64,000 nucleotides of DNA from a virus. Taxonomy: Duplodnaviria > Caudoviricetes. How positions within the stretch are numbered: position 1 is the stretch's first letter; each line of letters begins with the position of its first letter. Under the pieces are notes generated by a model. It did not search any database. It worked only from the letters and a program-made list of their open reading frames with translations, and was not told the DNA's origin. The translations under genes and the position numbers were made by a program. Below, one piece after another: positions 6,465 through 62,742 of the stretch. The stretch lies in IMG/VR virus record IMGVR_UViG_2507262055_000001; one strand, given 5' to 3'.

Positions 6465-6465
6465 G

Positions 6466-36977: not shown

Positions 36978-37630
36978 CCGTGGCTGCCTCACGCGAATTC
37001 GAATACTGGTCGCCCGAGCCCCTGTTCAAGGGCGAGACGATCTTCTGCCTGGCGTCGGGCCCGGGCCTGACCGCGGAGATATGCCAGCGGATCCGCGGGC
37101 GCCGGGCCATTGCCATCAATTCGAGCGCCGTGCTTGCGCCCTGGGCCAGCGTGCTGTTCTTCACCGATTCCGGCTGGTACGAGCCGCGGCGCGAGCTGGT
37201 GGCGAACTGGGCCGGCCTGGTGGTGTCGATGTCGCGGACTGCGAAGCGCGAGCTTCCCGACAAGGTCAAGCGGGTGCAGGGGGAGGGCGACCCCCAGGCG
37301 CTGCCGGGCTTCAGCCGCGGCCCTCACGTCATCCAGCAGGGCCGATCGAGCGGTCATACCGCGGTGAGCCTGGCGATCGCGCTGGGCGCTTCGCGAGTGG
37401 TGTTGCTCGGCTATGACATGCGCTTCGTCGGCGGCCGCGAGCACTGCCACGACGAGTACAAGGGGGCGGCTCGCGATGTCGAAATCTACAGCCGCGAGTT
37501 CGTACCGGGCTTTGCCGGCTGGGATGAGGCCGCGCGCGCAGTCGGCGTCGAGGTCGTCAACGCGACCGAGGGCAGCGCGGTGAAGGAATTTCGGTTTGCC
37601 AAGCTCGAGGAGATCTTGAATGCCCCGTAG
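36974..37630 (+). CDS. DUF115/Maf-like (sialyltransferase-type fold) glycosyltransferase-like protein
   Basis: TIFCLASGPGL, IAINSS...LFFTD, SSGHTAVSLAIALGASRVVLLGYDM, VEVVNAT. Confidence 0.7.
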   Translation: MTVAASREFEYWSPEPLFKGETIFCLASGPGLTAEICQRIRGRRAIAINSSAVLAPWASVLFFTDSGWYEPRRELVANWAGLVVSMSRTAKRELPDKVKRVQGEGDPQALPGFSRGPHVIQQGRSSGHTAVSLAIALGASRVVLLGYDMRFVGGREHCHDEYKGAARDVEIYSREFVPGFAGWDEAARAVGVEVVNATEGSAVKEFRFAKLEEILNAP

Positions 37631-37997
37631 TCTCGCTCTTCTCGCTTCCGCGGCTTGCATTGCGCTCCTGTCGACTGAAGCGTTCGCCGCCAAATGCTAT
37701 GTGAGGGAATACGCGGCCGTCGGCGCCGTGACGCGCCAGGGCGGCGTCGCCTTGCAGGCTGCGGCCGAGCCGCCGATCGTCGATCAGGCCGCCGTCGACT
37801 TCACCAGCGGCCACGCGGAGTCGGCGGCCTTCAATTCCGAAACCCGCTACATCCGCGTGTGGTGCGATGCTCAGGCTTCGTACCAGACAGGGGCAGCTCC
37901 GGTCGCGACCAACGCGATGTCGCCCCTCACGGCGGCGTTTCCGGAGTATTTCGGCGTGACGCCGGGCCACAAGATCTCCGTCGTCGCCAATCCCTGA
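37620..37997 (+). CDS. Small beta-rich virion-type protein with signal peptide
   Basis: MPRSLALLASAACIALLSTEAFA/A; SAAFNSETRYIRV...EYFGVTPGHKISV pattern. Confidence 0.7.
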   Translation: MPRSLALLASAACIALLSTEAFAAKCYVREYAAVGAVTRQGGVALQAAAEPPIVDQAAVDFTSGHAESAAFNSETRYIRVWCDAQASYQTGAAPVATNAMSPLTAAFPEYFGVTPGHKISVVANP

Positions 37998-38006
37998 CGC
38001 CATCCG

Positions 38007-38255
38007 ATGAACTTGAAGCAATTACTCGCCGCCACGATCGGCGTCGCGCTGCTCCTGGGCGCGCTCAAGGCGCCCGAGGTCTATGCGTTCGGCATGGGCC
38101 GCGAAGGCGCGAGCTTTGGCAGGATGGGTGCGATCGTGAAGAAGCAGAGCGGCGGAGCTGGCGCGAACACCGGCAGCATCCTGCTGGTCGATGGATCGTC
38201 GTTCCTGCTGCAGGTCGACGGGACGAGCCGTGTCTGCCTAGCTGGAGGCTGCTGA
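38007..38255 (+). CDS. Small signal-peptide protein
   Basis: MNLKQLLAATIGVALLLGALKAPEVYA/F; C-terminal ILLVDGSSFLLQVDG repeat and a Cys pair. Confidence 0.7.
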   Translation: MNLKQLLAATIGVALLLGALKAPEVYAFGMGREGASFGRMGAIVKKQSGGAGANTGSILLVDGSSFLLQVDGTSRVCLAGGC

Positions 38256-38258
38256 GCC

Positions 38259-40076
38259 ATGAGATTATCCTGGAAATCGCTTGCGGTCGCAACCGCGCTG
38301 ATCGGGCTGTCGCCAGCGGCTCATGCCGCGAATAGTGCCGTGCCGGCTATGACCGCCGCGACTTCCGTGGTCGGGACGGATCTGCTCTACTGCATCCAGT
38401 CGAGCGGCACCCTAGATCGAAAGTGCACGCCAGCCCAGATGGCCGCGTACATCTACGGCCTGACCAGCGGCGACGCGACGATCAACGGCACGGGCGCGGT
38501 GACGTTCGCCACGGTGAACGCCAACGTCGGTGCGTTCGGGTCTGCCACGCAATGCGTCGCTCACACGGTGAACGCCAAGGGCCTGATCACGGCCACTTCG
38601 GCGGTGACCTGCACGCCTGCAATTGGCAGCCTGACCGGCACGGGTACTGGCGTTATCACTGCCCTGGGTGTCAACGTGGGCACCGCAGGCTCTGTCGTCG
38701 TCAACGGCGGCGCGCTCGGCACGCCGTCCTCCGGCACTGCCACGAACCTGACGGGCACCGCCGCTGGCCTCACGGCCGGCAACGTCACGACCAACGCAAA
38801 CCTGACCGGCGCTGTGACATCGAGCGGCAACGCTACCTCGCTCGGATCGTTCACTAGCGCGCAACTCCTTGCCGCCCTGACGACCAAAACCGGCAGTGGT
38901 AGCGCTGTGTTCGGTACCGCGCCGACGATTGACAGCCTGAACGCCACGACCGCCATGACGCTGGCATGGATCACGGGCTCGACGCAGTGTTTGCAGGTCA
39001 ACACGTCCGGCGTTGTGAGCGGCACCGGCTCGGGTTGCGGCGGCTCCGGCTCGACCGGCGCGAACCCGACCGCTACCGCCGGCCCTACGGCCAACAACGG
39101 CGTCGCCACCACATTCATGCGGTCGGATGCTAGCCCTGCTGTGCAGCAGGGCAGCGCCTCGCAAAAGGGCATCGTTCAGGTTGACGGCACGACACTCCTG
39201 GCTTCGTCCGGCGTCATCAGCGCCGCGCCAACGACGGTCGCAACCAGCGTCCAGACTGGTGCGAATTATCCGTTCTTGACGGGCGACCAAGCGAAGCTTG
39301 TCTACCTCAACAACGCCAGCAATCAGGTGCCGACAATTCCGCAGGCCGGCACCACTGGCTTTGCTGCAAGCTGGTTTGTTCAAGTCTGCAACATCGGCGC
39401 AGGCACTCAGACAATCACACCGACCATCTCAACCATAGGGGGCGCAGCCAGCTATCTGTTGCCGGCGGCATCCGCGGCTGATCCTGCTTGCGTCGCCGTC
39501 GTGTCTGATGGCAGCAACTACGTGATAGCTCCTGACTTCACAAAGGATGCCTCCAGGTTTTCTGCGGGTGTGTTGGCCGCCGCGCGAGGCGGTGCCGGTA
39601 CTATTACTGGCGCTCTGAAGGCGAACGGTTCGGGCGTTGTCTCCCAGGCAGCCTGCGCCGATCTGTCGAATGCACAGACCGGCTGCTCCACTGCGACCGG
39701 CACGTCTGGCGGGACGCTGCCGCTGCTCAATGGCGCGAACACTTGGTCCGCTACGCAAACCTTCGGGCCGGTGGTCGGTACCGTCACTACGCAATCGGGC
39801 ACCACCTACACCTTCGCATCGAGCGATTGCGGCACAACGGTTCGCTTCTCCAATGCAGGCGCAGTGACTGCGACGATTCCTCAAGGCTTGCCTGTGGGTT
39901 GCAACATCGCCGTCATGCAGGCCGCAGCCGGTCAGGTGTCTGTCAACGGCTCTGCGGTAACCCCTGCCACGTTGCAGAGCGCGCACAGCTACACCAAGAC
40001 ATTCGGGGCAGGCGCAATCATCGGCCTCTTCAATGACGCCACCAATCATGTGGTGTTGACGGGGGATGGCGCATGA
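38259..40076 (+). CDS. Fibre-like Thr/Gly/Ser/Ala-rich protein with signal peptide (putative head fibre)
   Basis: MRLSWKSLAVATALIGLSPAAHA/A; LGTPSSGTATNLTG repeat; 12 Cys in six local pairs. Confidence 0.75.
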   Translation: MRLSWKSLAVATALIGLSPAAHAANSAVPAMTAATSVVGTDLLYCIQSSGTLDRKCTPAQMAAYIYGLTSGDATINGTGAVTFATVNANVGAFGSATQCVAHTVNAKGLITATSAVTCTPAIGSLTGTGTGVITALGVNVGTAGSVVVNGGALGTPSSGTATNLTGTAAGLTAGNVTTNANLTGAVTSSGNATSLGSFTSAQLLAALTTKTGSGSAVFGTAPTIDSLNATTAMTLAWITGSTQCLQVNTSGVVSGTGSGCGGSGSTGANPTATAGPTANNGVATTFMRSDASPAVQQGSASQKGIVQVDGTTLLASSGVISAAPTTVATSVQTGANYPFLTGDQAKLVYLNNASNQVPTIPQAGTTGFAASWFVQVCNIGAGTQTITPTISTIGGAASYLLPAASAADPACVAVVSDGSNYVIAPDFTKDASRFSAGVLAAARGGAGTITGALKANGSGVVSQAACADLSNAQTGCSTATGTSGGTLPLLNGANTWSATQTFGPVVGTVTTQSGTTYTFASSDCGTTVRFSNAGAVTATIPQGLPVGCNIAVMQAAAGQVSVNGSAVTPATLQSAHSYTKTFGAGAIIGLFNDATNHVVLTGDGA

Positions 40077-40966
40077 TCCGAGCAATTCTAGCGTGGCTCA
40101 TGCTGTGTTCGGGGGCTGCCGCGCAAGTTGGGCAGATGCCGAACATTGCTCAGTTGCAGCCTGCATCGGCCGCATATGCCGGGCCGGGCGATGTCGTCGC
40201 GAGCGCCTCCGGGTGGTGGGGCTTTCGAGCCTACAGCGCCGCCAAAAAGGGCACCAAGGCGATAAACGTCTGCAACGTGAGTGACGTTGCTTGCGCCGAC
40301 ATGAACACGGACGCCATAACTGGCGCGCTCGTCATCACCCTTGTGGGCGGGTCAGATTGCAGTTCTGTCACGTGCACGATCAAGACCGTTTATGACCAGA
40401 GCGGCGGCACGAATTGCAGCGCTGCGGCTTGCGATCTGACCAATTCGACGATCGCCAATCGGCCCACGCTGCAAACAAACTGCGCCAACGGTCAGCCTTG
40501 CGCTGTGTGCAATGGCGCGTCCTCGCAAAAGCTAGCGAACACATCGGCGCCGACGCTCGCGCAGCCTATCAGTGGTGCCTATGTTGGTGCTCGGACGGGC
40601 ACGTTTACGACGGGAGGCGGCTTGCTCTCTTCCGCCTCGACAGGTTTAATCGCTGGCTTCGCGCCAAGCACAAATACATTCCGGATCTTCAACGGAACGT
40701 CTCTACCGGCGACGGCGTCAGACTCTACTGTCCATTCGTTTCAGACGGTTTCAAATAACACGTCGAGCGTCGTAGTTGTCGATGGATCGGCAACTAGCGG
40801 TACGTCCAGCACTGGCGGCATCGCTACAAATCTGGATATCTGCAATTCAAATGGAAGTTTTCTGACCGGCCAATGGATGGAGGCCGGCTTCTGGACTGTT
40901 GCGTTCACCAGCACGCAATACGGAAACTTGCGGCTAAACCAGAAGGGATTTTGGAATACGCCATGA
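40073..40966 (+). CDS. Concanavalin/arabinofuranosidase-B-like beta-sandwich (lectin-like) protein with signal peptide
   Basis: MIRAILAWLMLCSGAAA/Q; GWWGFRAYSAA...KTVYDQSG...RPTL pattern; 10 Cys in the mature part. Confidence 0.65.
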   Translation: MIRAILAWLMLCSGAAAQVGQMPNIAQLQPASAAYAGPGDVVASASGWWGFRAYSAAKKGTKAINVCNVSDVACADMNTDAITGALVITLVGGSDCSSVTCTIKTVYDQSGGTNCSAAACDLTNSTIANRPTLQTNCANGQPCAVCNGASSQKLANTSAPTLAQPISGAYVGARTGTFTTGGGLLSSASTGLIAGFAPSTNTFRIFNGTSLPATASDSTVHSFQTVSNNTSSVVVVDGSATSGTSSTGGIATNLDICNSNGSFLTGQWMEAGFWTVAFTSTQYGNLRLNQKGFWNTP

Positions 40967-43900
40967 AGAAAGTAGTAGCTGTACTTTTTAGCGCTGTGCT
41001 TGTCGTGCTGCTGCTGTCGCCCGCGCTTGCGTTTATACGCGGCCAGCAGTCAGGGTTCAGCGGTGGCCGCACGCAGATTGGGCTCAATGGCATCGGCTTC
41101 ACCGGCGAGGGGATGTACCTGAACATCCTTAAAATATCCGGCAATTGGAACTGGGCAGACAACGCGAGCGGTGGCCCCGGCCCCGACATGCTGGACTCGA
41201 ACGGTTATCCGATTTTCAAATCGACGTACCTGGGGAATAGTTGCGGGTCTGGTGGCATCTGCCACGGCGGCATCAAGACCGTCACGGAGGTGCCCCCGTG
41301 TGCGACGCGTTCATGCTCCTATGTGCCGATCTCTACAGGGACGTGCACCTGGTCGGTCTCAGGTTCCGGCAGCATGTCGGTGAGCGGTGTTAACACGGTT
41401 GGGGCGACCTTCACTGCAACACCAACATTCCTAAGCAATCTGAACGCGTCGCAGGTTACGTTCCAGATTACGGCGACCGACGCCACCACGCCATGCACGA
41501 GCCTGGCCGTCGTCCATGTCGATGACGTGGTAGGAGCCGATTTCACCAACTATACGACCAAGGCCGGCACTGCGGTCGGCAAGTTCGGCTCGAAATTTTT
41601 GTCGCGGTTAGTCCAGGCAAAATTTGCCGTGATCCGTTTCATGAACTCGCAGAACACAAATGCGTCGAACGTGACCAGATGGGAAGATCGGACCCCGCAG
41701 AACTACGTTTTTTACAACGCCTACACGTACAATGCCGCCTATTACACAGGGGCCTCGACCAACAGCGGCACTTTGGGGAACGACTTTGCGGTCTCGCTTG
41801 GAAGCGGAGGCCCGGTCGATAAGCAGCCCTTGCACGTTCTCATAGGGCCCGATGGCAAGGCGACTTCTACGGGATCGACGATCTCCGGCAGCGTTCTGAC
41901 CGTGGCTGGCTACACTGGCGGGACGTATGCCGTAGGCCAGCGTCTATCAGGGACTGGCGTTGACGCAAATCTTTATATTGCTTCCCTCGGAACGGGCACC
42001 GGCCAAAATGGCACGTACAACCTCTCGCAATCCGCCAGCACGGTTGCCGTGGGGCAGAGCATCACAGGTTGGTACGGAACGAGAGTGGTCGGAACGACGG
42101 CTGCAAGCTGCTCTTTGTCGTGGCCTGCACATGGCGTAAGCGTAAACGACCCGATAGGGTTTTATTCCAGCGGCACCATTGCCGACAGCCTGCCCTTTTA
42201 TTCCGGTGGCAATTATTACGTCGTGAGCGTGCCTGACGCTGACCACGTTACCGTATCGAACACGGTTGGAGGTACGTGTCTCCAGGCCGCTGTAACCAGA
42301 CCTTCATCCACAATCGCGATCAGACAACCGACGCTGAGCCTCAACGGCTCGACCCCGATCACCATTAAGAATATGTACAGCAATACGCTGACAGGGCCGA
42401 ACGCAATCTCGGGCGCGAACACGGAAAATCCGGAGAGTGGTCGAATCGGAACCTTTGTCTACGATGACGATCTGAAGTCTTATTTGATGTTCGGCGGGAC
42501 ACAGGGTGACGGGCTTTTCAACCAAGGCATCATCAACGGCATTCCGATCGAAGACTGTCTGCTGCTCGCCACATACGTGGGCGCTCATCCATGGTTTGTG
42601 CAGCCGTTTTTGACGTCGAACGCATCTGCGGGGGCGGCGTATCCGAACTGGATCAATGGCCTCGCTACGTACCTGAAGGCCAATATGCCGGCTTGGATGA
42701 TTCCGCGCATCGAGCCCGTCGTTAATGAGGACTGGAACTCGCTTTTCTATGGCACCAGCTACTCCAACAACAAAGCCAGTGTCTACTGGGGAACGCCAAC
42801 GTCTCCTAACCTGAACGATTACAATAACTATTATGGATACGCCGCGTCTTTGAGTGGGCAGGCAGTCAATGCTGTTTTCGGTGGCTCAGTGCCTAGGGAC
42901 GGCAAGAGATACCAAGTCCCGATTGGCGTGCAGCAGACTAGCAGCCCGTCATCGAATGACGCGCGCCTTGCGTCTACCAAGTTTCTAAGCTCCGGCCCAA
43001 CGCCGCCAGCAGGGTTTGTTCAAGAGGCCGCCTACAAGTGGGTTACGCATGAGGCCCCCGCGAATTACTACGGTCTTAGCCTCGGTGCCGCTGCTCTTGT
43101 CCAGACGGCTTACCTATACAGCACGGGCGACGCCACCCAACTCACGTCCTATGTGGCCAGCACCGGGTTGAGCAACCCGCCTAACGGCGGATCGATCCCG
43201 GTCAAAGTTGCTTCTTTCCTTGACCATTATCAGTGGGGGCAGGGCACCGGAGCCTACACAGGCAAGCCATGGGCACTTGACGGAATCGCTATTCGACAGA
43301 CCGCTTATGAAGGCGGCTGGTCTCCCCCTTATGTGCAAAACACCGTGCCTGGCACGCTGGATTTCACAACCAGTTCGGCCAGCGTCAATTCATCCTCCCC
43401 GGTCACATCGGTCAGCAAAGCGGCAGCAGCCGTGCTCGCGATGCCGACGACAACGACTCCTTTCGGCACGGTCCCAAATACCGGCAACGGCGCCGTGGTG
43501 GGAATGCCCATCCGCATCGTCAATGCGGCCGGCGGCGACTTCACCAAGCTGAACAGTTCGCGCCAGACCGTCACATTCACAAACAGCTCGTGCGATATTT
43601 CGCTGACGGCGAACGGGTACGTTGCCAACGAGGCGGCTGTGTTCAACACCAGCGGTTCGCTGGGAGCGTCGCTGACTGCTGGAGCGGCCTATTTCATCGT
43701 TAACCCGACGACCAATGCTTTCCAAGTGTCGCTCACAAAGGGGGGCTCGTGCATCTCGATCAACACAGCGGGAATATCTGGAAGCAATCAGGTGACGCCC
43801 GGCTGGTTTGTCAATGGCGTTGGCGGCGCGCTCGGTGCGAACAATATCAGCCTTGATGTCGATACCAGCGCGTACACCGGGACTTACGCTGCCAGCAGCG

Positions 43901-44160
43901 CGTCGGCGGTCTACATCAACGATGGCAACAACAATTCGATGATAATGTTGGCGTCGCTGTCAGCCAGCAACGCCGGCTCATTCTTGGCGGGGAATGGCTC
44001 TGCATTCTACGATCAGCTTATTGCCAACGGATGCGAATTTCCGTCTCAGTTCGATATGGCGGGCAACAACGCCACGTTACCGTGGTCCCCGCTTTATCCG
44101 AACGTCTACGTGACACCCGACCCGTCCTATTGGACTGCGATCTCAGCCTACAATCACTGA
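40963..44160 (+). CDS. Large signal-peptide protein with clan GH-A-like glycoside hydrolase motifs and inserted beta-repeat domains
   Basis: MKKVVAVLFSAVLVVLLLSPALA/F; IRFMN..NTN, GIPIE, HPWF, VNEDWN (acid/base-like) and AYEGG (nucleophile-like). Confidence 0.65.
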   Translation: MKKVVAVLFSAVLVVLLLSPALAFIRGQQSGFSGGRTQIGLNGIGFTGEGMYLNILKISGNWNWADNASGGPGPDMLDSNGYPIFKSTYLGNSCGSGGICHGGIKTVTEVPPCATRSCSYVPISTGTCTWSVSGSGSMSVSGVNTVGATFTATPTFLSNLNASQVTFQITATDATTPCTSLAVVHVDDVVGADFTNYTTKAGTAVGKFGSKFLSRLVQAKFAVIRFMNSQNTNASNVTRWEDRTPQNYVFYNAYTYNAAYYTGASTNSGTLGNDFAVSLGSGGPVDKQPLHVLIGPDGKATSTGSTISGSVLTVAGYTGGTYAVGQRLSGTGVDANLYIASLGTGTGQNGTYNLSQSASTVAVGQSITGWYGTRVVGTTAASCSLSWPAHGVSVNDPIGFYSSGTIADSLPFYSGGNYYVVSVPDADHVTVSNTVGGTCLQAAVTRPSSTIAIRQPTLSLNGSTPITIKNMYSNTLTGPNAISGANTENPESGRIGTFVYDDDLKSYLMFGGTQGDGLFNQGIINGIPIEDCLLLATYVGAHPWFVQPFLTSNASAGAAYPNWINGLATYLKANMPAWMIPRIEPVVNEDWNSLFYGTSYSNNKASVYWGTPTSPNLNDYNNYYGYAASLSGQAVNAVFGGSVPRDGKRYQVPIGVQQTSSPSSNDARLASTKFLSSGPTPPAGFVQEAAYKWVTHEAPANYYGLSLGAAALVQTAYLYSTGDATQLTSYVASTGLSNPPNGGSIPVKVASFLDHYQWGQGTGAYTGKPWALDGIAIRQTAYEGGWSPPYVQNTVPGTLDFTTSSASVNSSSPVTSVSKAAAAVLAMPTTTTPFGTVPNTGNGAVVGMPIRIVNAAGGDFTKLNSSRQTVTFTNSSCDISLTANGYVANEAAVFNTSGSLGASLTAGAAYFIVNPTTNAFQVSLTKGGSCISINTAGISGSNQVTPGWFVNGVGGALGANNISLDVDTSAYTGTYAASSASAVYINDGNNNSMIMLASLSASNAGSFLAGNGSAFYDQLIANGCEFPSQFDMAGNNATLPWSPLYPNVYVTPDPSYWTAISAYNH

Positions 44161-44175
44161 GTCCGGAGATAGTTC

Positions 44176-44397
44176 TCACCCAAAGGTTCGGGCGATGAAC
44201 TTTGCGATCCTGACGGTCGGGCGGCTTTTCACGTCGATACGGTTTGCGAAGACACCAATCCCGAGCGGGATGTCGCCTTCAAGCTCAAACAAACCTTCTT
44301 TGGTAACGGAGAATTCGAGCTTCTTGCCGTCGACCTCGAAACTGTAGATCCCAGCACGTGTGAAATAGCTGTCGCGTAGTCGCCATTGTGATTTCAT
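44176..44397 (-). CDS. Hypothetical protein (possible small moron gene)
   Basis: ORF from MKSQWRL just downstream of the PEP-CTERM gene; protein-like composition. Confidence 0.35.
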   Translation of the reverse strand: MKSQWRLRDSYFTRAGIYSFEVDGKKLEFSVTKEGLFELEGDIPLGIGVFANRIDVKSRPTVRIAKFIARTFG

Positions 44398-44411
44398 GCA
44401 ACCCAATTCCC

Positions 44412-45125
44412 TTAAGAGAAGTTCTCCGCGCGCCTGTTCCTCGCGACTGAAATACCAATTGTCGAGAAGCCTAGGATCAGCATCACCCAAGTTGTCGGCT
44501 CAGGGACGCTTGTGATCGGCGCGGATAGTCCATCGACCACAATATCAACAGAGGAGATCGAAAGGGCGTAACCCACTGTCCCACCCCCTTCACCACGCGT
44601 GCCATACCAGTAGGTGAGCCCGCCTGATCCAACGAAGTCTTTGATGCTGACCGGTGTGAGGATATCGCTCGGAAGCAAAGGGTTATCACCAGTTATCCAG
44701 AGATGAACGGCTTGGCCGTAAGCCCCTTCTAGGCTGTTGATGTACCCCAGAGCTGTGAAGATATGACCATTGTTGATCGTCAAGGTGGCGTCGGACCAGA
44801 AAAATTCGTCGAACATGCCGGTGGCGAAGCCAGGTGCTCGTTCCGGCTGGGAGTTGCAGGAGCAACCTGGATCGGTAGTATAGAACGCGGTGGGACTGAC
44901 AATAGCTCTGGCATCATTGGTATCGAAGACGAAGCCAAAGACGCCCCGTCCTGAACCTAAAGCGCCTTCTCCAAATCCGCCGGGAGCCGTTTGGCCCGTC
45001 CTAGGGTCGTAGTTACCAGACCAAGAGGCAGCATAAGTGCCAGTGTAGTTCACTTGGATAATGGCCGCTTGGGCGCTGAAGTTGACGCTGACAAACGCGG
45101 CGACCAGCAATAAGAACTTGAGCAT
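44412..45125 (-). CDS. PEP-CTERM (PEPxxW-type) exosortase substrate
   Basis: Signal peptide MLKFLLLVAAFVSVNFSAQA/A; C-terminal VPEPTTWVMLILGFSTIG + basic RNRR; AGGAG SD. Confidence 0.9.
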   Translation of the reverse strand: MLKFLLLVAAFVSVNFSAQAAIIQVNYTGTYAASWSGNYDPRTGQTAPGGFGEGALGSGRGVFGFVFDTNDARAIVSPTAFYTTDPGCSCNSQPERAPGFATGMFDEFFWSDATLTINNGHIFTALGYINSLEGAYGQAVHLWITGDNPLLPSDILTPVSIKDFVGSGGLTYWYGTRGEGGGTVGYALSISSVDIVVDGLSAPITSVPEPTTWVMLILGFSTIGISVARNRRAENFS

Positions 45126-45265
45126 ACTATGACACTCCTAAAGGGCAGGCATTCCACCGTTCGCGCGGGGATTGAGTCAATCGCGGAAGCCAAAAAAACT
45201 CTGTTTGACTTCCTTATGTTCGCTAGGCGTTCTCCGGCCCGCCTAGCCCAGAAAGAAAGTTATAG

Positions 45266-46214: not shown

Positions 46215-46233
46215 AGAGAGGCATGACAAAATG

Positions 46234-46257: not shown

Positions 46258-46277
46258 GTACTCTTCTATGATGGCGA

Positions 46278-47015
46278 TCAGGCGGCGTCGAGCGCGGTTG
46301 ATCGATTGCGGCGGCGATAAGCCATGAAGCCAACGCCGGAGAAACCGAGGATCATCATCGCCCAGGTTGAGGGCTCAGGCACTCCGCCGATCGTACCCGA
46401 TGTGTCGCTGGTCACTTCAGCGTAGAGATCGGCGGTTGCTGTCAGGCCTTCGCGAACGTGAAGTTGGGAGCCACTCGAGGCCAGAAAGCCATCGCCTACA
46501 ACGTTTTCGAAGCCGACCAATTTGACCGTGTAGTTGGTGCCGCCGACATTGAAGATAGTCGGAGTGAAGGTCGAAGGAAGGTTGACGTAATCTGCATCAG
46601 CGTCGGGATCAACGTTGCCATTTGTAGTGATCACCAAGCCCAGGCTGAAAATAGTCTGGATCAAGCCGAGCGCCGGATTCGTGAAGTTGGTGGCCAAGTT
46701 AAAATCGATCGAGTTCGGAGTGGTCCCGACCGCGGTCGTCCCATTGAAATAGGTCAGCGTTCCTACTTTAAATGGCGTCTCGAAAGCGCTTGAGAACCCG
46801 ACACCTGCAAACGTCAGGGAATTGGGCCCGGTGCCGAAACCAGCGCTGTCGCCGTAAGTGAAGGCGTTTGTACCGACGCCCGTGACCGTCGCACCGCCGG
46901 GCTGGGGGTTAACGAAGCTCGCATCAGCAGATCCGATAACGTCGGCAGCGAACGTTGGGACGGCGCTGATTGCGGTGAGGAGAGCGGCGAGACCAAGTGA
47001 TTTTAATTGATGCAC
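46278..47015 (-). CDS. PEPxxWA-CTERM exosortase substrate (choice-of-anchor K-like domain)
   Basis: Signal peptide ...[13 protein letters not shown]; [25 protein letters not shown]; GTG start chosen from GGGAG SD spacing. Confidence 0.92.
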
Positions 47016-47169
47016 TTTCAAACTCCCAATTTAAATTAACAATAGTTAATTCTTTACCCGCCACGCCCGCGCGTCAATACGCTTTCCGCCTCTCCTGGAT
47101 GGAATTCAGAGTGACCAAGCTCACACGCCTTCCCGTCGCCATTCACTGCTTTGCCGCCCCGGAGCCCGC

Positions 47170-54988: not shown

Positions 54989-55389
54989 GCAAGGCGTTCG
55001 AGCCCTATGTCGGCATTCCCTATCTCGAGCGCGGCCGGAGCATCTCCGGCTGCGATTGCTACGGCCTGGTGCGACTGGTGCTGGCCGAGCTGCGGGGCGC
55101 CGAGCTGCCGTCCTTTGTCGAGGCCTACGTCTCAGCAACCGACCGCGCCGCGCTGGCGCGGTTGATCGCAGGCGAGATCGCGCCATGGCAGCCCGTTGCG
55201 TTCGGCGAGGAGCGGCCCTTCGACGGCGTGCTGATGCGGGCAGGGCGGCTGTTGTCCCATATCGGCCTGGTGGTCGAGCCGGGGCGGCTGCTGCACGTCA
55301 GCGAGGGCGAAGAGTCCAGGATCGAGCGCTATCGTGCACCGCCGCTCAGCCATCGCGTCGTCGGGTTCTACAGGTGGCAGGCCGTATGA
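54985..55389 (+). CDS. NlpC/P60 (gpK-like) tail tip peptidase
   Basis: YVGIPY..RGRS..GCDCYGLV (Cys) and SHIGLVV...LLHV (His). Confidence 0.88.
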   Translation: MSKAFEPYVGIPYLERGRSISGCDCYGLVRLVLAELRGAELPSFVEAYVSATDRAALARLIAGEIAPWQPVAFGEERPFDGVLMRAGRLLSHIGLVVEPGRLLHVSEGEESRIERYRAPPLSHRVVGFYRWQAV

Positions 55390-58300
55390 TGCTTCCGGTT
55401 CGGCAGCTGCACCAGGGCGAGATCCTGTCGCCGGCGGCGACCGTGCGCGTCATCGGGCGGACCCATCCGCTCGCCGGCGAGCGCGTGGTGCGCGACGTCG
55501 CGGCCGGGCTGTCGATTGCCGAGATCCTCGCGCTTTGCGCCGGTGAGAGCTATGCCGGCGGCTTTATCGTTCATATCAACGGGCACGCGGTCCCGCCGGA
55601 GCATTTTCGAAAGGTGCGGGTCAAGGCGGGCGCGACCGTTACGTTCATGCCGCGGCTGCAGGGCGGCGGCAACGTCTGGCGCACCGTCCTGTCGGCGGTC
55701 ATCGCGGTCACGGCGCTGGTGGTTGCGCCTTATTTGGCGCCCTTCCTTGTCCCGTTGGGGCTGTCGCTCGGTGTTGCCACCGCTCTTGTCGCCGGTGGCA
55801 TCATGCTGGCCGGCACGCTGGCGCTCAACGCGCTGTTTCCGGTGCGGCCGCCGCAGCTCGGCGACAACACCGCTTCGGCCTCGCTCAATTCGATCCAGGG
55901 CGCGCAGAACCAGGCTGCGCCGTTCGGCGCGGTGCCGGTGGTGCTGGGCCGTCACCGCCAGTCGCCGTTCTATGCCGCCAAGCCCTACACCGAGATTGTC
56001 GGCGAGGATCAATATCTCCGGCTGCTGTTCTGTCCCGGCTATGGCCCGCTCGCGATCGACGACTTGCAGATCGGCGAGACGCTGCTGTCGTCCTATTCCA
56101 ATTACGATATCGAGGTGCGCCAGGGCCTTGTCTCGGATGCGGCGGTGACGCTCTATCCCGGTACCGTCGACGAGGTCGCGCTGTCGATCACGCTGGCCAA
56201 TGGCAATGATCCTGCCGGCTCGGATACCGGCACCGGCGGCCCATGGCAGAGCCTGACCACGCCGCCCGACACCGACGAGATCTCGCTCGATTTCGTCGCG
56301 CCGCAGGGCTGCTACCAGGTCAACAGCAACAGCGGCAATGCCGACGAATATCGCGTCACCATCAAGTGCCAGTATCGGCCGGTGGGGACGGTCAGCTGGT
56401 TCAACATGTCGGACGCCGTCTTCAATCGCTCGACCAGCCCGATCAGGCGCGGCGTGCGCGAGGTGGTTGCGCGCGGACAGTACGAGGTGCGCGCCAAGAA
56501 ACAGACCGGCGATGGCCGTGACGACAAGATCAAGGACGAGGTGGCGTGGACCGCGATCCGCTCGCTCAAGAACGCGGCGCCGATCGGCTTTGCCAAGCCG
56601 CTGGCCTTGATCGCCCTGCGGATCCGCGCCAGCGATCAGCTGTCCGGCGTCATCAGCACCCTGAACTGTATCACCACCTCGCTGGTCAAGGCCTATTCCG
56701 GCGCTGGCAATGTGTGGAGCGACGACACCGCCTCGCAATGGCCGCCGGATCTGTTCCGGCATGTGCTGCAGGGCCCGGCCAATGCGCGGCCGGTTGCCGA
56801 TGCCGGCATTGATCTCGGCAATCTGCAGGAATGGTGGGTCTACTGCGTCGCCAACGGTTTCAAATTCAACCAGGTGCTGACATCGGCAGGCTCGGTCTAT
56901 GACAAGCTTGCCGACATCGCCGCAGCTGGCCGCGCCGTTCCGACTTTCATCAACGGCAAATGGGGCGTGATCTGGGACCGGCCGGATGATGCCATCGTGC
57001 AGCACTTCACCCCGCGTAACTCCTGGGGTTTCCAGCTGCAGCACCCCTATGCCCAGCAGCCGCACGGCTGGCGAGTCAGCTTCATCAACGAGGACAACGG
57101 CTTCACGCAGGACGAGCGCATCGTCTACGACGACGGCTACGATGCCACCAATGCGACCCTGTTTGAGGGGTTACAGTTTCCCGGTGTCACCGATCCTGAC
57201 GGCATCTGGAAGCACGGCCGGTTTCATATCGCGCAGTCCCGGCTGCGGCCGGAGAAGATCTCGCTCAATGTCGGCTGGGAGCATCTTGTCTGCACCCGCG
57301 GCGATCGCGTCCGGGTCACTCACGACGTGCTGCTGATCGGGCTCGCTGCGGCCCGGGTCAAGGCAGTTCCGGGTCAGACCATAATGGTGGATGGAATTGA
57401 GGTGACGCTCGGCGCGCAGGAGATCGTGATCGATGAGACCGTCACGATTGAGGCCGGCAAGACCTACGGCATGACCTTCCGCGTCCCCGACGACGTTCGC
57501 ACCATCACCCGCGCCGTCGATGCGGTGATGACGGCTGGCGACTATACCGCGCTGACGCTGGTCGGGGACCTCTCCGGCATTGCCGACGGCGTCCTGGTCG
57601 CCTTCGGCGAGACCGACCGCGCCAGTGCCAATTATCGCGTCCAGGGGATCGCGCACCAGAAAGACCTGATCGCAACCCTGACCCTGGTCGACGATGCCCC
57701 GGAAATATCGCAGGCCGATCAGGGCGAGATCCCGGCCTACAATCCGAACGTCACAATCCCGGCCGATCCGTTCTCGCTGCCTCCGCGCGACCTGCAGTAT
57801 CTCGAGGTGATCGACGGCTATGGTGCTTCGGTCCGCGCCCTTGTGCACCTGTCCTGGCAACTGCCGCGCTTCGGCAATGTCGCATCCTTCGAGGTGCAGC
57901 AGCAGGATAACGATGGCGGCGCGGCCTGGGTGACGGTTGCGTCCGTGCTGCCGCCGAACATGTCGGCGGACGTACCGATTATCGCGGCTGGTGCATGGAG
58001 CTTTCGGGTTCGCTGCGTCTTCACCAACGGCACGGTGTCGGCGTGGACGGCGCTCAACGGGCTGGCTCTGCTCGGACTGTCGTCTGTTCCGGGCGACATC
58101 GTCAACCTGCACCAGCACAGCGTCGATGGCCAGACCGTGCTGGATTGGGACGATGTCACCGATCACCGCCTGGTCTATTACGAGGTCCGCAAAGGCACTT
58201 CGTGGGACACCGGCCTGGTCGTCGGCGATGTCGTCACCCAGCCGCCATGGCCCACCACGGGCGACGGCACCTATCACGTCAGGGCCTATGTGCTGTCGCC

Positions 58301-59219
58301 GTTCGGCGTGCGGATCTACAGCGCTTCCACAGCCTCGATCGCGATCGCCGATTCCATCATCTCGCGCAACATCATCGTCTCCAACGATGAGCAGGCTGCG
58401 GGATGGCCGGGTGGGCTCGATGGCGGCGTCATCGCCGGCAGCTTCATCCGCACCGACGTCGGCGCGGCGATCTCGATGCCTTGGGCGCAGGAGATCGTCG
58501 ACCAGCTCAGCCTCGATGGCCTGCACATCGCGGTCTATCTCTCTTCGGTGATCGTGGACATCGGTCGCGCCGCCGAGTGCCGGTTCTGGACCGAGTACGA
58601 GGCCTCCGGTGTGCTGCAAGGCGAGGATTTTCTGGCGCAGCCGGACGTCCTTGGATCGGGCGATATTCTCGGGACCTCGCCAACACGCTTCATCCAGGCG
58701 TTCCCGATCTGGCGGTTTGCATCCTCGGGCACCAACGACGTCTTTACGCCGACGGACGTGTTTGCGCCGACCGACGTGTTCACGGCGGATGTTGTTTGGG
58801 GGGATTTCGTTGCGATCGCGTCGGGCACGCGGGTCGGTCGGTACTTTCGCGCGGGCTTGGTGCTGATCACCAACGACGCAACCACGGACGCGACCGGCAC
58901 GAAGTTCAGTTGGTTCGTCGACGTGCCCGATCGCAATGACGACTACACCGAGCTCGCCGTGCCGAACACCGGGCTCGAGGTCACCTTCTATAGCGGCGGC
59001 TATGACGCCACGCCCGCGGGCGGGGCCACGCCGGTGCCGTTCAATGGTGGCCCGAACGGGTCAACCGTGCCGCACGTGCAGCGCGCCATCATCAACGGCA
59101 GCAACGGCGACGAGGTCAAGGTCACCAACCTCACGCTGGCGGGCTGCACCGTCCATGTCGTCAACGCCGGCTCCAACGTGACGCGCAGCGGCGTCAATCT
59201 TCTGGTTCGCGGCTTTTAG
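55386..59219 (+). CDS. Central tail fibre / host-specificity protein J (with gpI-like N-terminus)
   Basis: Ubiquitin-like N-terminus plus hydrophobic patch, GAVPVVLGRHRQSP, FNQVL, putative phage tail domain, FnIII repeats (YEVRKGTSW). Confidence 0.9.
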   Translation: MMLPVRQLHQGEILSPAATVRVIGRTHPLAGERVVRDVAAGLSIAEILALCAGESYAGGFIVHINGHAVPPEHFRKVRVKAGATVTFMPRLQGGGNVWRTVLSAVIAVTALVVAPYLAPFLVPLGLSLGVATALVAGGIMLAGTLALNALFPVRPPQLGDNTASASLNSIQGAQNQAAPFGAVPVVLGRHRQSPFYAAKPYTEIVGEDQYLRLLFCPGYGPLAIDDLQIGETLLSSYSNYDIEVRQGLVSDAAVTLYPGTVDEVALSITLANGNDPAGSDTGTGGPWQSLTTPPDTDEISLDFVAPQGCYQVNSNSGNADEYRVTIKCQYRPVGTVSWFNMSDAVFNRSTSPIRRGVREVVARGQYEVRAKKQTGDGRDDKIKDEVAWTAIRSLKNAAPIGFAKPLALIALRIRASDQLSGVISTLNCITTSLVKAYSGAGNVWSDDTASQWPPDLFRHVLQGPANARPVADAGIDLGNLQEWWVYCVANGFKFNQVLTSAGSVYDKLADIAAAGRAVPTFINGKWGVIWDRPDDAIVQHFTPRNSWGFQLQHPYAQQPHGWRVSFINEDNGFTQDERIVYDDGYDATNATLFEGLQFPGVTDPDGIWKHGRFHIAQSRLRPEKISLNVGWEHLVCTRGDRVRVTHDVLLIGLAAARVKAVPGQTIMVDGIEVTLGAQEIVIDETVTIEAGKTYGMTFRVPDDVRTITRAVDAVMTAGDYTALTLVGDLSGIADGVLVAFGETDRASANYRVQGIAHQKDLIATLTLVDDAPEISQADQGEIPAYNPNVTIPADPFSLPPRDLQYLEVIDGYGASVRALVHLSWQLPRFGNVASFEVQQQDNDGGAAWVTVASVLPPNMSADVPIIAAGAWSFRVRCVFTNGTVSAWTALNGLALLGLSSVPGDIVNLHQHSVDGQTVLDWDDVTDHRLVYYEVRKGTSWDTGLVVGDVVTQPPWPTTGDGTYHVRAYVLSPFGVRIYSASTASIAIADSIISRNIIVSNDEQAAGWPGGLDGGVIAGSFIRTDVGAAISMPWAQEIVDQLSLDGLHIAVYLSSVIVDIGRAAECRFWTEYEASGVLQGEDFLAQPDVLGSGDILGTSPTRFIQAFPIWRFASSGTNDVFTPTDVFAPTDVFTADVVWGDFVAIASGTRVGRYFRAGLVLITNDATTDATGTKFSWFVDVPDRNDDYTELAVPNTGLEVTFYSGGYDATPAGGATPVPFNGGPNGSTVPHVQRAIINGSNGDEVKVTNLTLAGCTVHVVNAGSNVTRSGVNLLVRGF

Positions 59220-59231
59220 GAGCATCACGAA

Positions 59232-60677
59232 ATGAAGCGTCAACTTCACCTGATCGCCATCGCGGCGATCGCGGGATCGATCGCGGCCGGCGCCGTGCAG
59301 TCGCTGATCTCGGCCTGGGCCGTGCAGAACGAGTTGGTGCCGCCGACGTCCGGCATCTACACCGGCGTGCAGTACTCGCAAAAGATCGGCGATGCTTTTC
59401 GATCGCTCGCGAGCTGCAACAAAGGCGCAACCGCGCCGGCCAATGTTGGCGGCGCGACGGTCGACGGCCTTTGTTGGATCGACGATTCCCTGACGCCGTG
59501 GAGCGTCAAGCAATATGTCAACGGCGGCTGGGCCGTCACCGGCTACCTCGATCCCTCCAACAGCAGTTTTTCGGGCGTCGTCGGCGGCGGGCTTGGTTCG
59601 ATCGCCTCGGCCTCGACCACGGATCTCGGCTCGGTGCCGCAAGCCAGCGTGACCATCACGGGCACCGCGACGATCTCCGCGTTCGGTTCGGCCGCGCCAG
59701 ATGGTACGATCAAGTTCATTCGGTTTGCTGGCGCGTTGAAGCTTGCCAATTCTGCCGCGCTTGCGGTCCCTGGCGGCTATGACCTGGTCACGGCGGCCGG
59801 CGACCGCGCGATCGTCACACATCTCGGCAGCGGCAGCTGGGAAATTACGCAATACACCCGTGCCAATGGCATTCCGGTCGACGTCGCGTCGGTCGGAAAG
59901 ATCGAGTACGGCAATTTCGAAAGCATCCCGCCGAATAGCGTTTCCGGCTACGGCCAGGCGCTGTCCAGGGCGAGCTATCCGGTTTACCTGGCAAAGGTGA
60001 CGCGGGCGCAGAACGGCACCCGTACCTCCGGCAATGCGACGATCACGGGCATCGCCAACACGGAAGGGTTCGGCCCCGGCATGCCGGTCGAGGGCACCGG
60101 CATCAATGCCGGCTGCATCATCGCGAGCTTCGTTCAGAACACCTCGATCACTCTCAACTCGTCCTCTTGCGTTACTGCGTCGGGGACATCGGCCGTTACT
60201 GTGTTTCTGACGGGCTACGGCGTTTCGGGGAACTCCACCACGGTCGGTGTCAAGGATTGCCGCGGCCGAGCCCTTGCGGGGCGTGATCTCTTCAGAAACG
60301 GCGCTTGGGCAAACCGGCTGACCCCGTCCTATTTTGGTGTGGACTCATCGATATCTGGCATCGCCAATGGTTCGGAATTTCAGACGCTGACCCTCGGCCA
60401 GCTCCCGACTGGGATTACCGTCGCCGGGACCATTCACGTCACCTCGGATCAGGGCAACATCCCGTCGAGCACAACCCAATCGGGTGCGGTCGATGCCACC
60501 AGTGGCACTCGCTGGGGCATCATCGGGCCGGCCTCAGGCACCACGCCTGCGACGATCGGCGACATCACGTCGACCGGTACGGCGCAAACCATGACGTCGA
60601 CGAACACCAGCGGCAATTCGCATCCGATCGTACCTCCGACGCTGATCGCCGACTGCGTCGTTCGCGTGACGCCGTAA
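59232..60677 (+). CDS. Tail fibre with tail-collar-like domain and signal peptide
   Basis: MKRQLHLIAIAAIAGSIAAGAVQSLISAWA/V; YGQALSRASYP...DCRGRALAG collar motif; HPIVPPTL. Confidence 0.7.
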   Translation: MKRQLHLIAIAAIAGSIAAGAVQSLISAWAVQNELVPPTSGIYTGVQYSQKIGDAFRSLASCNKGATAPANVGGATVDGLCWIDDSLTPWSVKQYVNGGWAVTGYLDPSNSSFSGVVGGGLGSIASASTTDLGSVPQASVTITGTATISAFGSAAPDGTIKFIRFAGALKLANSAALAVPGGYDLVTAAGDRAIVTHLGSGSWEITQYTRANGIPVDVASVGKIEYGNFESIPPNSVSGYGQALSRASYPVYLAKVTRAQNGTRTSGNATITGIANTEGFGPGMPVEGTGINAGCIIASFVQNTSITLNSSSCVTASGTSAVTVFLTGYGVSGNSTTVGVKDCRGRALAGRDLFRNGAWANRLTPSYFGVDSSISGIANGSEFQTLTLGQLPTGITVAGTIHVTSDQGNIPSSTTQSGAVDATSGTRWGIIGPASGTTPATIGDITSTGTAQTMTSTNTSGNSHPIVPPTLIADCVVRVTP

Positions 60678-60705
60678 AGCGCCCTCTGGAAAAGGAACAC
60701 TTCGC

Positions 60706-62742
60706 ATGAAGCTGCAACGCCTTCTCGGCGCGGTCTGCGCTGCGCTGCTGCTTGTCGCGCCGCTGCGCGCGGCCGAGCAGTCGAGCTATGTCACGCCGAC
60801 CGCCGGGCCGATGAGCATGGCCACGTTCACGGCGACCTATCTCAATCCGGCACTCCGGGCGCTGGCGGCATGCCACAACGGTTCATCGGCGCCGGCAAAC
60901 GGGCCGAGCAGTGCGCCGATGGCCTATCAGGTCTGGTGCGACACCACGACCAACCCGGCGATCGTCAAGCGCTATGACGGCGCGTCCTGGGTGGCCATCG
61001 GTGCGCTCGATACCGTCTCCCACGCTTGGACGCCGTACCTCACCGGTGGCACCTCCGGCGGCCTGCCTTACTTCTCGAGCACGGGGGTGATGGCGTCCTC
61101 GGCCTTGCTGGCGCAGAACGGTTTTGTCGTCGGCGGTGGCGCTGGTGCGGCGCCGGCCTCGATCGCGGCGTGCACGGCCGACCAGATCGCGTTCGGCCGG
61201 ACCGGAAGCGCGCCGCTGTGCCGCACGGTGACCGGTGACATCAGCTTTGCGACTGGCGTCAGCGCGGTCGGCGCCTCCAAGGTCACCTCGGCGATGCTCA
61301 ATGCCGACGTATTCTCGACCGCGCATAGCTGGTCCGGCCAGCAGACTTTGGTGGCGCCGATCCTGGGCACGCCGGCCTCCGGGACGCTCACCAACGCCAC
61401 GGGCCTGCCGATCGCGACGGGCGTCTCCGGGCTTGGCACCGGCGTCGCTGCGGCGCTCGCGGTCAATACCGGCTCTGCCGGCGCGCCGGTGTTGTTCAAT
61501 GGCGCGTTGGGAGCGCCATCGTCGGGCACGCTGACCAATGCGACGGGGCTGCCGGTGGCGAGCGGCGTCAGTGGGCTTGGGACCGGGGTTGCGACATTTC
61601 TGGCGACGCCGTCCAGCGCGAATCTGCGTGCGGCGTTGACCGACGAGGTCGGGACCGGGGCGGCGTATTTCATCGGCGGCGCGCTGGGCACGCCGGCCTC
61701 GGGCACAGCAACCAATCTGACTGGGCTTCCGATATCGAGCGGACTGACCGGAGCCGGGACGGGGGTTCTCACGGCGCTCGGCACCAACGTCGGCTCCGCC
61801 GGCTCGGTCATCGTGAATGGTGGTGCGCTGGGGACGCCGTCCTCGGGAACGCTAACCAGCGCGACCGGCTTGCCGCTGTCGACCGGCGTCACCGGAACGC
61901 TGCCGCTCAGCAATGGCGGCACCGGCCAGACCACGGCAGCGGCGGCGCGCGCCTCGTCCGGCCTCAATGTCGAGAGCTTCACCGGCCACGGCGACTCCAT
62001 CTACACGATCCTGGCGACCGATCGCACCGTTGGCACCAACGCGGCCTTTACGGCCTCGCGCACCTGGACTCTGCCGGCCGCCAGCGTCGTCAATCCCGGC
62101 CAGGACCTTGTTGTTGCCGACTTCCAGGGCACGGTGACGGGAACCAATACGCTGGTGATCCAGCGCGCCGGCTCTGACACCGTCAACGGCGGCAGTGCGG
62201 TCACGATCTCGGTTGCGAACGGCGCCTATCTCTTCAAGAGCGACGGCGTCTCGAAATGGACCGCGCAATCGATGGGCGCGGCCTCAGGCGGCGGCGTTTC
62301 CAGCGTGACGTGCTTTGGCGTGGCGATAACGAGCTCCGGCACCTGTGCGACGGCCGCAACGAAGTCGGATCAGCAGACCGGCACTTCGACGACGGCGATC
62401 GTCACGCCATCGCAGCAGCAAAGTCATGATAGTGCGCTGAAGGCCTCGGCCGTTATCACGCAGTCTGCCGGGACATACACCCTGGTCGCCGCTCCCGTCA
62501 GCTACGGCGTCGCGTCGATCTCAAAATCATCGACAGGCATCGTGGTGGTGACGCTGAGCACGGCGATGGCGAGTGCTAACTACAAGGTGTTGTGCATGGC
62601 CACCCAGACCACGCCAGTCACCGTCCAGGAAGCGGGCGGAAACAGAACGACGACCACATTCGAGATAAGAATCCAGAGCGTCGGGGCAACCCCCGCCGCA
62701 ACCGACAGTGGATTTTCCTGCGACGTTTCCGGGCGTCAGTGA
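60706..62742 (+). CDS. Side tail fibre with signal peptide and four LGTPxSGTxTNxTGLP repeats
   Basis: MKLQRLLGAVCAALLLVAPLRA/A; Gly/Thr/Ser-rich repeats; RTWTLPAAS...IQRAGSDTVNG fibre motif. Confidence 0.8.
   Translation: MKLQRLLGAVCAALLLVAPLRAAEQSSYVTPTAGPMSMATFTATYLNPALRALAACHNGSSAPANGPSSAPMAYQVWCDTTTNPAIVKRYDGASWVAIGALDTVSHAWTPYLTGGTSGGLPYFSSTGVMASSALLAQNGFVVGGGAGAAPASIAACTADQIAFGRTGSAPLCRTVTGDISFATGVSAVGASKVTSAMLNADVFSTAHSWSGQQTLVAPILGTPASGTLTNATGLPIATGVSGLGTGVAAALAVNTGSAGAPVLFNGALGAPSSGTLTNATGLPVASGVSGLGTGVATFLATPSSANLRAALTDEVGTGAAYFIGGALGTPASGTATNLTGLPISSGLTGAGTGVLTALGTNVGSAGSVIVNGGALGTPSSGTLTSATGLPLSTGVTGTLPLSNGGTGQTTAAAARASSGLNVESFTGHGDSIYTILATDRTVGTNAAFTASRTWTLPAASVVNPGQDLVVADFQGTVTGTNTLVIQRAGSDTVNGGSAVTISVANGAYLFKSDGVSKWTAQSMGAASGGGVSSVTCFGVAITSSGTCATAATKSDQQTGTSTTAIVTPSQQQSHDSALKASAVITQSAGTYTLVAAPVSYGVASISKSSTGIVVVTLSTAMASANYKVLCMATQTTPVTVQEAGGNRTTTTFEIRIQSVGATPAATDSGFSCDVSGRQ

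Follow-up and report, generated by a model that had tools for sequence, protein, structure and literature searches.

We examined a 64,000-nucleotide stretch of viral DNA, IMG/VR record IMGVR_UViG_2507262055_000001, referred to here as the window. It carries a prophage of the lambda/HK97-like siphovirus type. The host is a Bradyrhizobium-type soil bacterium and the closest named relatives are Bradyrhizobium. Seven open reading frames (ORFs) of this prophage begin with a predicted Sec-type signal peptide, or leader. Two of them lie directly after gpJ (hereafter J), which encodes the central tail fibre. The other five form a cassette further upstream. A sequence-only reading of the window had proposed that all seven are fibre or appendage proteins, matured in the periplasm. 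The ORFs, named by their start positions, are as follows.

37620-37997, plus strand: cassette gene 1, a predicted small exported protein of 125 amino acids (aa); leader about residues 1-23; 2 mature cysteines.
38007-38255, plus strand: cassette gene 2, a predicted very small exported protein of 82 aa; leader about residues 1-27; LLVDGSSFLL-type motif; Cys77/Cys82.
38259-40076, plus strand: cassette gene 3, a predicted exported fibre-like protein of 605 aa; leader 1-23; 12 cysteines.
40073-40966, plus strand: cassette gene 4, a predicted exported beta-sandwich protein of 297 aa, like LamG and the GH54 catalytic domain; 10 mature cysteines.
40963-44160, plus strand: cassette gene 5, a predicted large exported protein of 1065 aa; leader 1-23; 12 cysteines.
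59232-60677, plus strand: a tail-fibre/collar-type protein of 481 aa with a predicted leader (about 1-30, SAWA/V); 6 cysteines.
60706-62742, plus strand: a side tail fibre of 678 aa with a predicted leader (1-22/23, APLRA/A); 8 mature cysteines.

Leaders were called using a crude rule. This demands a positive n-region, an uncharged hydrophobic stretch (h-region) of at least 10 residues and small residues at -3 and -1. As the sequence-only reading had stated, all seven ORFs carry such leaders, and the cleavage contexts that it quoted (LSPAAHA/A, LSPALA/F, APLRA/A and SAWA/V) were all confirmed in the sequence. Among the remaining 24 ORFs of the prophage only the protease passes, and weakly. Enrichment by leader count was rejected; 18.5% of host ORFs pass the rule, and 7 of 31 prophage ORFs is not above this baseline (P = 0.35 for at least seven). 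The surprise is which proteins bear leaders, rather than the number of them. No lipobox (L-[AS]-[GA]-C at the cleavage site) was found in the seven leaders, and the leader cysteines of 37620, 40073 and 60706 fall within the h-region, outside any lipobox context. Hence, we rejected a lipoprotein reading involving signal peptidase II. The twin-arginine (Tat) motif (S/T-R-R-x-F-L-K before the h-region) is absent from the window's seven proteins.

In ORF order, the mature proteins contain 2, 2, 12, 10, 12, 6 and 8 cysteines, mostly as local pairs. The earlier counts for 38259, 40073 and 40963 were correct, as were the six local pairs of 38259 (45/56, 99/118, 244/260, 377/411, 466/476 and 524/548). 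All seven numbers are even, as are those of 68% of the host proteins that pass the leader rule. The genes are closely packed, with gaps to the preceding gene of -11 to +28 nt. Shine-Dalgarno (SD)-like sequences are clear at 37620, 38259, 59232 and 60706 and weak at 40073 and 40963; none is visible before 38007. Mis-called starts were rejected on three grounds: the leaders of homologues, a database gene call of 1065 aa for 40963 and the SD-like sequences. Searches of Pfam, NCBIfam and PDB sequences with the seven proteins gave no match.

Consider first the pair after J. The 59232 gene starts 12 nt 3' of J, and 60706 starts 28 nt 3' of 59232. The two proteins have a paralogous N-terminal domain (the N-domain), which begins right after the leader. 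In 59232 the hydrophobic stretch is unusually long, at about 26 residues, and residues 129-479 match tail collar or tail fibre proteins of isolated Rhizobium, Pseudomonas and Ralstonia phages. The 60706 protein, with mature cysteine pairs at 56/78, 156/172, 536/547 and 630/672, has 7692 homologues. These include fibres with Collar, S74 and Gly-rich tips. Domain and sequence searches detected no catalytic domain in either protein.

To collect the N-domain family, residues 1-140 of 60706 were searched against 1.84 billion cluster representatives (50% identity clusters). This identified 1093 representatives at E <= 1e-3, of which 435 remained at E <= 1e-10, with matches that almost always started at residue 1. 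Leader conservation, which the sequence-only reading had proposed as a check, was evident; the rule was passed by 141 of the best 150 representatives. The misses are five evident leaders and four truncated gene calls. The leader is nonetheless the least conserved segment of the family, with strong conservation from the predicted cut onward. The family logo reads P-A-x-A-(A/T)-E-Q, in which the conserved Q is preceded by a median of 24 residues. Within the same 150 representatives, 139 have both Cys56 and Cys78, 10 have neither and 1 is split.

At the best IMG/VR loci with upstream sequence, N-domain genes lie 3' of a gpJ homologue in 19 of 19 cases, mostly directly. The usual order is J, a 59232-like gene and a 60706-like gene. 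J followed by leader-bearing fibre genes is also seen in a Devosia prophage, in Bradyrhizobium sp. CCBAU 11386 and in Bradyrhizobium phage ppBdUSDA122-1. Leader-bearing orthologues of 59232 follow J in at least 12 viral contigs, in CCBAU 11386 and in ppBdUSDA122-1, the last of which has both fibre genes. There is no leaderless fibre gene after J in the prophage studied here. In about nine more distant phages with N-domain fibres, the C-terminal part of J (from residue 417-1014 to 1387) alone still matches. The J protein of ppBeUSDA76-1 is without that part, and a different fibre type follows it. Among species representatives the element is patchy, yet it is common in metagenomes. An N-domain profile search of 300 genomes of the order, and a search for 38259 in 61 relatives, each returned the window's own genome only, with few candidates scored per genome. 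In scans of genome contigs, the sole match was Bradyrhizobium sp. CCBAU 11386.

AlphaFold2 modelled the N-domain as one helix and five strands, with a predicted local distance difference test score (pLDDT) of 85-96 for residues 31-110. The leader forms a separate helix. Among predicted structures, viral tail fibres come nearest (BFVD E = 7.7e-5), and 9 of the 10 nearest cluster types in the Atlas are 100% viral, at template modelling (TM) scores of 0.35-0.40. Foldseek found no match to the model in the PDB, and the best Z in a wide VIA-align comparison was an unconvincing 4.3.

Some relatives of the N-domain are leaderless. They start at most a few residues away from the predicted cut, and they are classed in PHROG tail-fibre families. 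An example is Rhizobium phage RHph_Y3_1, where J is 37% identical and the next gene (EVB59_049) encodes a leaderless protein that begins MTQATTFSVPTTGP. BLASTP places residue 24 of 60706 opposite residue 3 of this protein (E = 2e-5), which has no cysteine at either position of the pair. We then compared 102 N-domain instances from viral contigs. The cysteine pair is present in 25 of 27 instances with a leader and in 2 of 75 called leaderless by the rule. Both of the latter carry obvious leaders that the rule missed. The Fisher P value for this coupling (3e-19) overstates its significance, since the sequences are related. Consistent with the coupling, homologues of 60706 contain 1.22 cysteines per 100 aa when a leader is present and 0.18 when it is not (P = 3e-15). 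The pairs occupy more than one set of positions, such as CMP...DCS in some 59232-type proteins, which suggests that the pair was gained repeatedly.

Spacing from J was compared as well. Of 16 leader-type loci, 13 have 83-120 nt between the J stop codon and the mature N-terminus and three have 332-971 nt; at 2 of 3 leaderless loci this distance is 8-16 nt. Paralogues agreed in leader status at 14 of 14 loci. These sequence comparisons support, in part, an origin of the after-J pair from canonical leaderless tail fibres, whose slot it fills.

A further case was seen in a P22-like podophage contig (L007, 10001-11539). Here, a third and unrelated fibre N-terminus carries a leader and a cysteine pair, and the mature protein starts QNAGTVTNHAFAIGKG. 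The gene lies just 5' of the lysis cassette. Hence, fibre export signals extend past siphophages.

We turn now to the five genes at 37620-44160, which recur as a cassette in at least five other phage contigs (L009, L010, L011, L094 and L095). The recurring order is a small protein of about 125 aa, an LLVDGSS protein of about 80 aa, a fibre-like protein, a LamG-type protein and then one or two large proteins. The two small genes are each absent from some contigs. In L010 and L094, as here, the cassette follows the head genes; in L009, L011 and L095 it closes the late operon, behind the lysis genes. Every cassette member in the other contigs has an export signal except the smallest protein of L010. 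The signals are not always of the Sec type. L010 and L094 have Tat motifs on their LamG proteins, and L011 has one on its large protein (RRRFLK, RRQFIR and RRSFI). No phage matched the 36-48 kb region in a Megablast search.

The start of 37620 overlaps the end of an upstream Maf-like gene. Its product has no match in family libraries, and counterparts of 124-141 aa, with leaders, occupy the same cassette position in L009, L094 and L095. The same three contigs encode counterparts of the 38007 protein (64-81 aa, with leader and motif); the L010 form has 53 aa and is leaderless. The 40073 gene overlaps each of its neighbours by 4 bases. Its product matches Atlas clusters that are 100% viral (feature score 0.99, TM 0.79). 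The L009 counterpart is 38% identical over 179 residues by BLASTP, while those of L010 and L094 have the same LamG-type Pfam domain and a common mature N-terminal motif; other counterparts were assigned by cassette position. A tblastn search of isolated phages with 40073 gave no match.

The 38259 protein is the fibre-like member. The leader rule is passed by 93 of its 119 homologues; about 17 others have a longer N-terminus, made up of a membrane segment plus leader, and about 9 are leaderless or truncated. The mature cysteine count is even in 91 of the 93 that pass, and by eye the pairs co-vary (LLYC..RKC versus LLYV..RKG). Repeats are common to 38259 and the 60706 fibre. Using hhalign, mature positions 4-42 of the 38259 family aligned with positions 6-42 of MADARISQLP-type leaderless phage fibres (probability 90%, E = 1.4e-6). 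This relationship was seen by profile comparison alone; BLASTP of the extreme N-terminus of 38259 against the leaderless fibre gave no alignment.

The longer form, in about 17 of the 119 homologues, has a conserved extra N-terminal segment ahead of the usual leader and AYA cleavage site. The segment consists of an MFL.HL..MGGFEL.H.WHG motif, a membrane helix and a basic loop, and looks like a two-segment export signal. It was seen in homologues P0133, P0134, P0140-P0142, P0150, P0157, P0159 and others, and in L011 (10001-11671) and L095 (10001-12310).

The 40963 gene has a lower local GC content (0.58), and only two distant homologues of its product were found. In a four-sequence alignment N588-E589-x-W591-N592 is invariant and follows a predicted strand. 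This NE.WN motif is compatible with a clan GH-A enzyme and insufficient to establish one; the protein is possibly glycan-active. AlphaFold2 run on the four sequences gave an unusable model (pLDDT 28), there was no match in Pfam or the PDB and a feature search of the Atlas gave no usable match. Proteins at this position in other cassettes are divergent, and all have Sec or Tat signals.

Bradyrhizobium phage ppBdUSDA122-1 has the same backbone as this prophage, except that some 12 kb between the capsid and adaptor genes are missing. This relative, which B. diazoefficiens USDA 122 sheds spontaneously, forms siphophage particles (PMC10127595). We regard 37620-44160 as a probable mobile cassette of five exported proteins, separate from the fixed structural operon. 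The sequence-only reading had placed all seven genes in one structural operon. Their common orientation and tight spacing (-11 to +28 nt) were confirmed, but five of them make up an insertion between the head and tail modules that ppBdUSDA122-1 lacks. The proposed fibre identity is supported in part, for the pair after J, on homology and position.

The remaining features of the prophage are listed below.

1-1191, minus strand: integrase; genes for a ParB-like protein, a methylase and a primase lie further on.
26.5-34 kb: small and large terminase, portal, protease and major capsid protein.
30719-31726: a 335-aa ORF between portal and protease, with no PHROG match.
35513-37630: hexapeptide acyltransferase-like gene, glycosyltransferase (phrog_1962) and Maf/sialyltransferase-like gene (phrog_4603), chained, directly 5' of the exported cassette.
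44412-45125 and 46278-47021, minus strand: two PEP-CTERM/PEPxxWA-CTERM surface-protein genes, one with a choice-of-anchor K domain.
47.2-59.2 kb: head-tail adaptor, tail tube, chaperone, tape measure, minor tail proteins and gpJ.
55056-59219, plus strand: gpJ, central tail fibre with a fused lambda I-like domain (phrog_31 E = 1e-121, PF24801, PF06805).
63016: amidase endolysin; then, past the window end, holin-like and lipoprotein genes.

Fusion of PF06805 (lambda tail assembly protein I-like) to the N-terminus of J was seen here and in Bradyrhizobium CCBAU 11386 (L006 4753-8526). The TTG start of J at 55056 gives an implausible Arg-rich N-terminus, and the true start is probably further downstream. 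The two PEP-CTERM genes lie 3' of the cassette and ahead of the head-tail adaptor gene, in an island of low GC (0.53). These are moron-like cargo within the late region. Sec substrates are translocated in an unfolded state. Hence, the acyltransferase-, glycosyltransferase- and Maf-like enzymes of 35513-37630 probably act on some other substrate. Beyond the holin and lipoprotein genes is a 224-aa leader-bearing ORF without a family (about window coordinate 65932). RlpA/DPBB-like proteins with leaders occur in the lysis regions of ppBdUSDA122-1 (L008 26235-26594) and L011 (8935-9348). The lysis region of L009, a phage contig unrelated to this prophage, has an FA_hydroxylase (Pfam) gene at 6094-6603.

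Export of the seven proteins is very well supported, and we hold it with high confidence. Leaders are kept in kind though not in sequence, Sec signals are swapped for Tat signals and cysteine pairs accompany leaders only; real export and oxidative folding, as first suggested by the sequence-only reading, would account for all three. The use of two export pathways by orthologues is the strongest argument, because it indicates that destination, rather than a tag function, was selected. Our favoured reading, which we consider to have an even chance of being right, is that canonical phage fibre proteins have been re-routed to the periplasm. Incorporation into the virion is plausible for the pair after J; the case for the cassette proteins is weaker. 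More tentatively, and at slightly worse than even chances, we propose that a widespread set of soil tailed phages matures its host-recognition fibres in the periplasm, via Sec or Tat export, leader removal and Dsb, and joins them to particles built in the cytoplasm only when the envelope is breached. We found no earlier account of such a two-compartment route of assembly for Caudoviricetes.

The favoured re-routing could proceed as follows. Each protein would be made late with a Sec signal peptide and passed unfolded through the membrane. Signal peptidase I would cut at AxA, leaving an N-terminus within a few residues of where leaderless relatives start. The host Dsb system would then fold and disulfide-bond the exported proteins. 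The 59232 and 60706 proteins most likely remain side fibres, with their common disulfide-stapled N-domain as the docking module. This N-domain would first reach the tail tip formed by J as holin and endolysin open up the envelope, or else in the lysate. The cassette, which includes a lectin-like LamG-type protein, would also act late, in or beyond the periplasm, most likely on envelope polysaccharide or by decorating released particles. In known systems side fibres are late, separable additions, and fibreless T4 particles accept free long fibres in vitro. Hence, docking of side fibres at this stage is biochemically plausible.

Several points weigh against re-routed virion fibres. Virions of tailed phages are built in the cytoplasm, and fibres that attach as the cell lyses, or later, have to compete with dilution. 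Lambda-type phages can infect by J alone; hence, side fibres are dispensable and their genes could be put to other use. Some leader-bearing N-domains, such as the one from Devosia, have no cysteine pair, and the leader calls themselves rest on a crude rule. The varying position of the cassette among phages, its lower GC and its moron-like flanks fit an accessory role over a virion role. Finally, disulfides occur in virions assembled in the cytoplasm, for example those of phage Milano (PMC10811340), so cysteines by themselves prove nothing on export. We take Milano to be assembled in the cytoplasm because the same paper mentions neither signal peptides nor the periplasm.

The best-surviving alternative, which we consider unlikely, is that the proteins are exported yet stay outside the virion, acting late on the envelope of the dying cell. 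They might mask or destroy receptor polysaccharide, saving progeny from debris, or open exopolysaccharide, capsule, lipopolysaccharide or the outer membrane for release. The cassette lends itself to this explanation. It sits right after the lysis genes in L009, L011 and L095, holds a LamG-type sugar-binding fold and a large protein with an NE-type motif, and neighbours surface-polysaccharide genes (acyltransferase, methyltransferase, GDSL esterase and glycosyltransferases). Exported late lysis proteins also have precedent in signal-peptide (SP) and signal-anchor-release (SAR) endolysins (PMC6116005). The pair after J fits it poorly. These proteins retain the modules of receptor-binding fibres, namely an N-terminal anchor, a repeat shaft and swappable Collar or S74 tips, and they have no detected catalytic domain. 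Furthermore, they substitute for leaderless fibres in the J-distal slot, rather than being added beside them.

Less probable still is display on the producing cell. Here, the N-domain would anchor fibres at the cell surface, as adhesins or to block superinfection or the receptor. The tail proteins PblA and PblB of Streptococcus mitis phage SM1 also serve as cell-surface adhesins, and the cassette adjoins the PEP-CTERM surface-protein morons. The layout is that of the mosaic adhesive trimer (MAT) fibres of Bdellovibrio bacteriovorus, which are displayed on the cell surface (PMC10769870). Against this, gaps of 12 and 28 nt are too short to hold a promoter before the pair, and tight coupling to J is seen at most related loci; hence, expression should be late and not in the lysogen. 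Decoration of the lysogen surface, an option of the sequence-only reading, is thus disfavoured for the pair, though the cassette could have this role. For the cassette region, a search for sigma-70-like promoters on the plus strand between 34 and 47.4 kb, which is a weak test, found none. No route across the outer membrane is encoded, and the N-domain is homologous to leaderless virion fibres but not detectably to MAT N-domains. Very improbable is a third possibility, that the leaders have no export role and are uncleaved tethers, cytoplasmic assembly tags (cleavable in the version offered by the sequence-only reading) or start-codon artefacts: the long hydrophobic stretch of 59232, and an upstream ATG at 40873 that could lengthen the 40963 ORF, are outweighed by a physicochemical leader pattern that more than 1000 diverged clusters retain, by SD-like sequences at the leader ATGs of both after-J genes and two cassette genes, by exchange of Sec leaders for Tat motifs, by the strict coupling of leader and cysteine pair, by leaderless relatives that begin at the predicted cut and by the 1065-aa database call for 40963.

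Known systems resemble the pair after J in different respects. Leaderless J-distal side fibres (RHph_Y3_1 EVB59_049 and, as a concept, lambda Stf) occupy the same slot, with a homologous N-domain, a shaft and a variable tip. In contrast to these, the fibres here have a predicted Sec leader of about 22-30 residues and a cysteine pair inside the domain, which is found in no truly leaderless instance, and no fibre-assembly gene follows them. In g3p of the filamentous phages (Ff/M13), a Sec signal and periplasmic disulfides precede incorporation into the virion, as we propose for the fibres here. Indeed, exported, disulfide-bonded receptor-binding proteins are known for filamentous phages. However, inoviruses assemble at the membrane by extrusion and g3p retains a C-terminal membrane anchor, whereas the phage here is a tailed siphophage with lytic release and its proteins have no anchor.

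Bdellovibrio MAT fibres resemble the pair in several ways. In both, a signal peptide is followed by a conserved N-domain (about 100-130 aa) and a fibre that is phage-like and trimeric, with tips that can be swapped (PMC10769870). According to that work, the conserved MAT N-domain spans about 130 aa, the shaft is a trimeric beta-helix and the tips vary, some of them carrying S74; Peptidase_S74 is also found on some homologues of 60706. However, MATs are cellular genes, shown on the surface of the predator, whereas the pair belongs to a prophage late operon and directly follows J. Our N-domain model gave only Z of about 3, to C-terminal beta-helix fragments of MAT, in a compared set that was without the MAT N-domain. 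Exported late proteins of tailed phages are already known, as endolysins, spanins and exclusion lipoproteins (PMC6116005). Among these, SP and SAR endolysins (fOg44 Lys44 and P1 Lyz) are made late, use host Sec and are held in the envelope until the holin fires (PMC6116005). Those are lysis enzymes, whereas the proteins here are fibre homologues without a detected catalytic domain. Agrobacterium phage Milano shares a rhizobial-type host and has disulfide-stabilised virion proteins (PMC10811340). Its bonds are inter-subunit, in the sheath and baseplate, whereas here cysteines track with export signals.

The assembly of tailed phages is taught as wholly cytoplasmic. In the full-text literature we found no report of signal peptides on tailed-phage fibres, which is no proof of absence. 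New here are the comparison of leaderless and leader-bearing fibres at one locus, the Tat variants and a cultured relative that sheds particles (PMC10127595). If the favoured reading is correct, phage morphogenesis would involve a second compartment and depend on host Sec, signal peptidase and Dsb, adding further host factors that limit phage production. It would also account for disulfide-rich receptor-binding proteins in soil viromes. Prediction and expression of receptor-binding proteins would change, and recombinant fibres would need periplasmic expression. If the proteins instead act outside the virion, they would constitute a large class of late, exported, fibre-derived phage proteins, the N-domain family alone comprising 1093 clusters (50% identity). 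In either case, Bradyrhizobium strains that shed such phages spontaneously are a ready test system in an agriculturally important symbiont.

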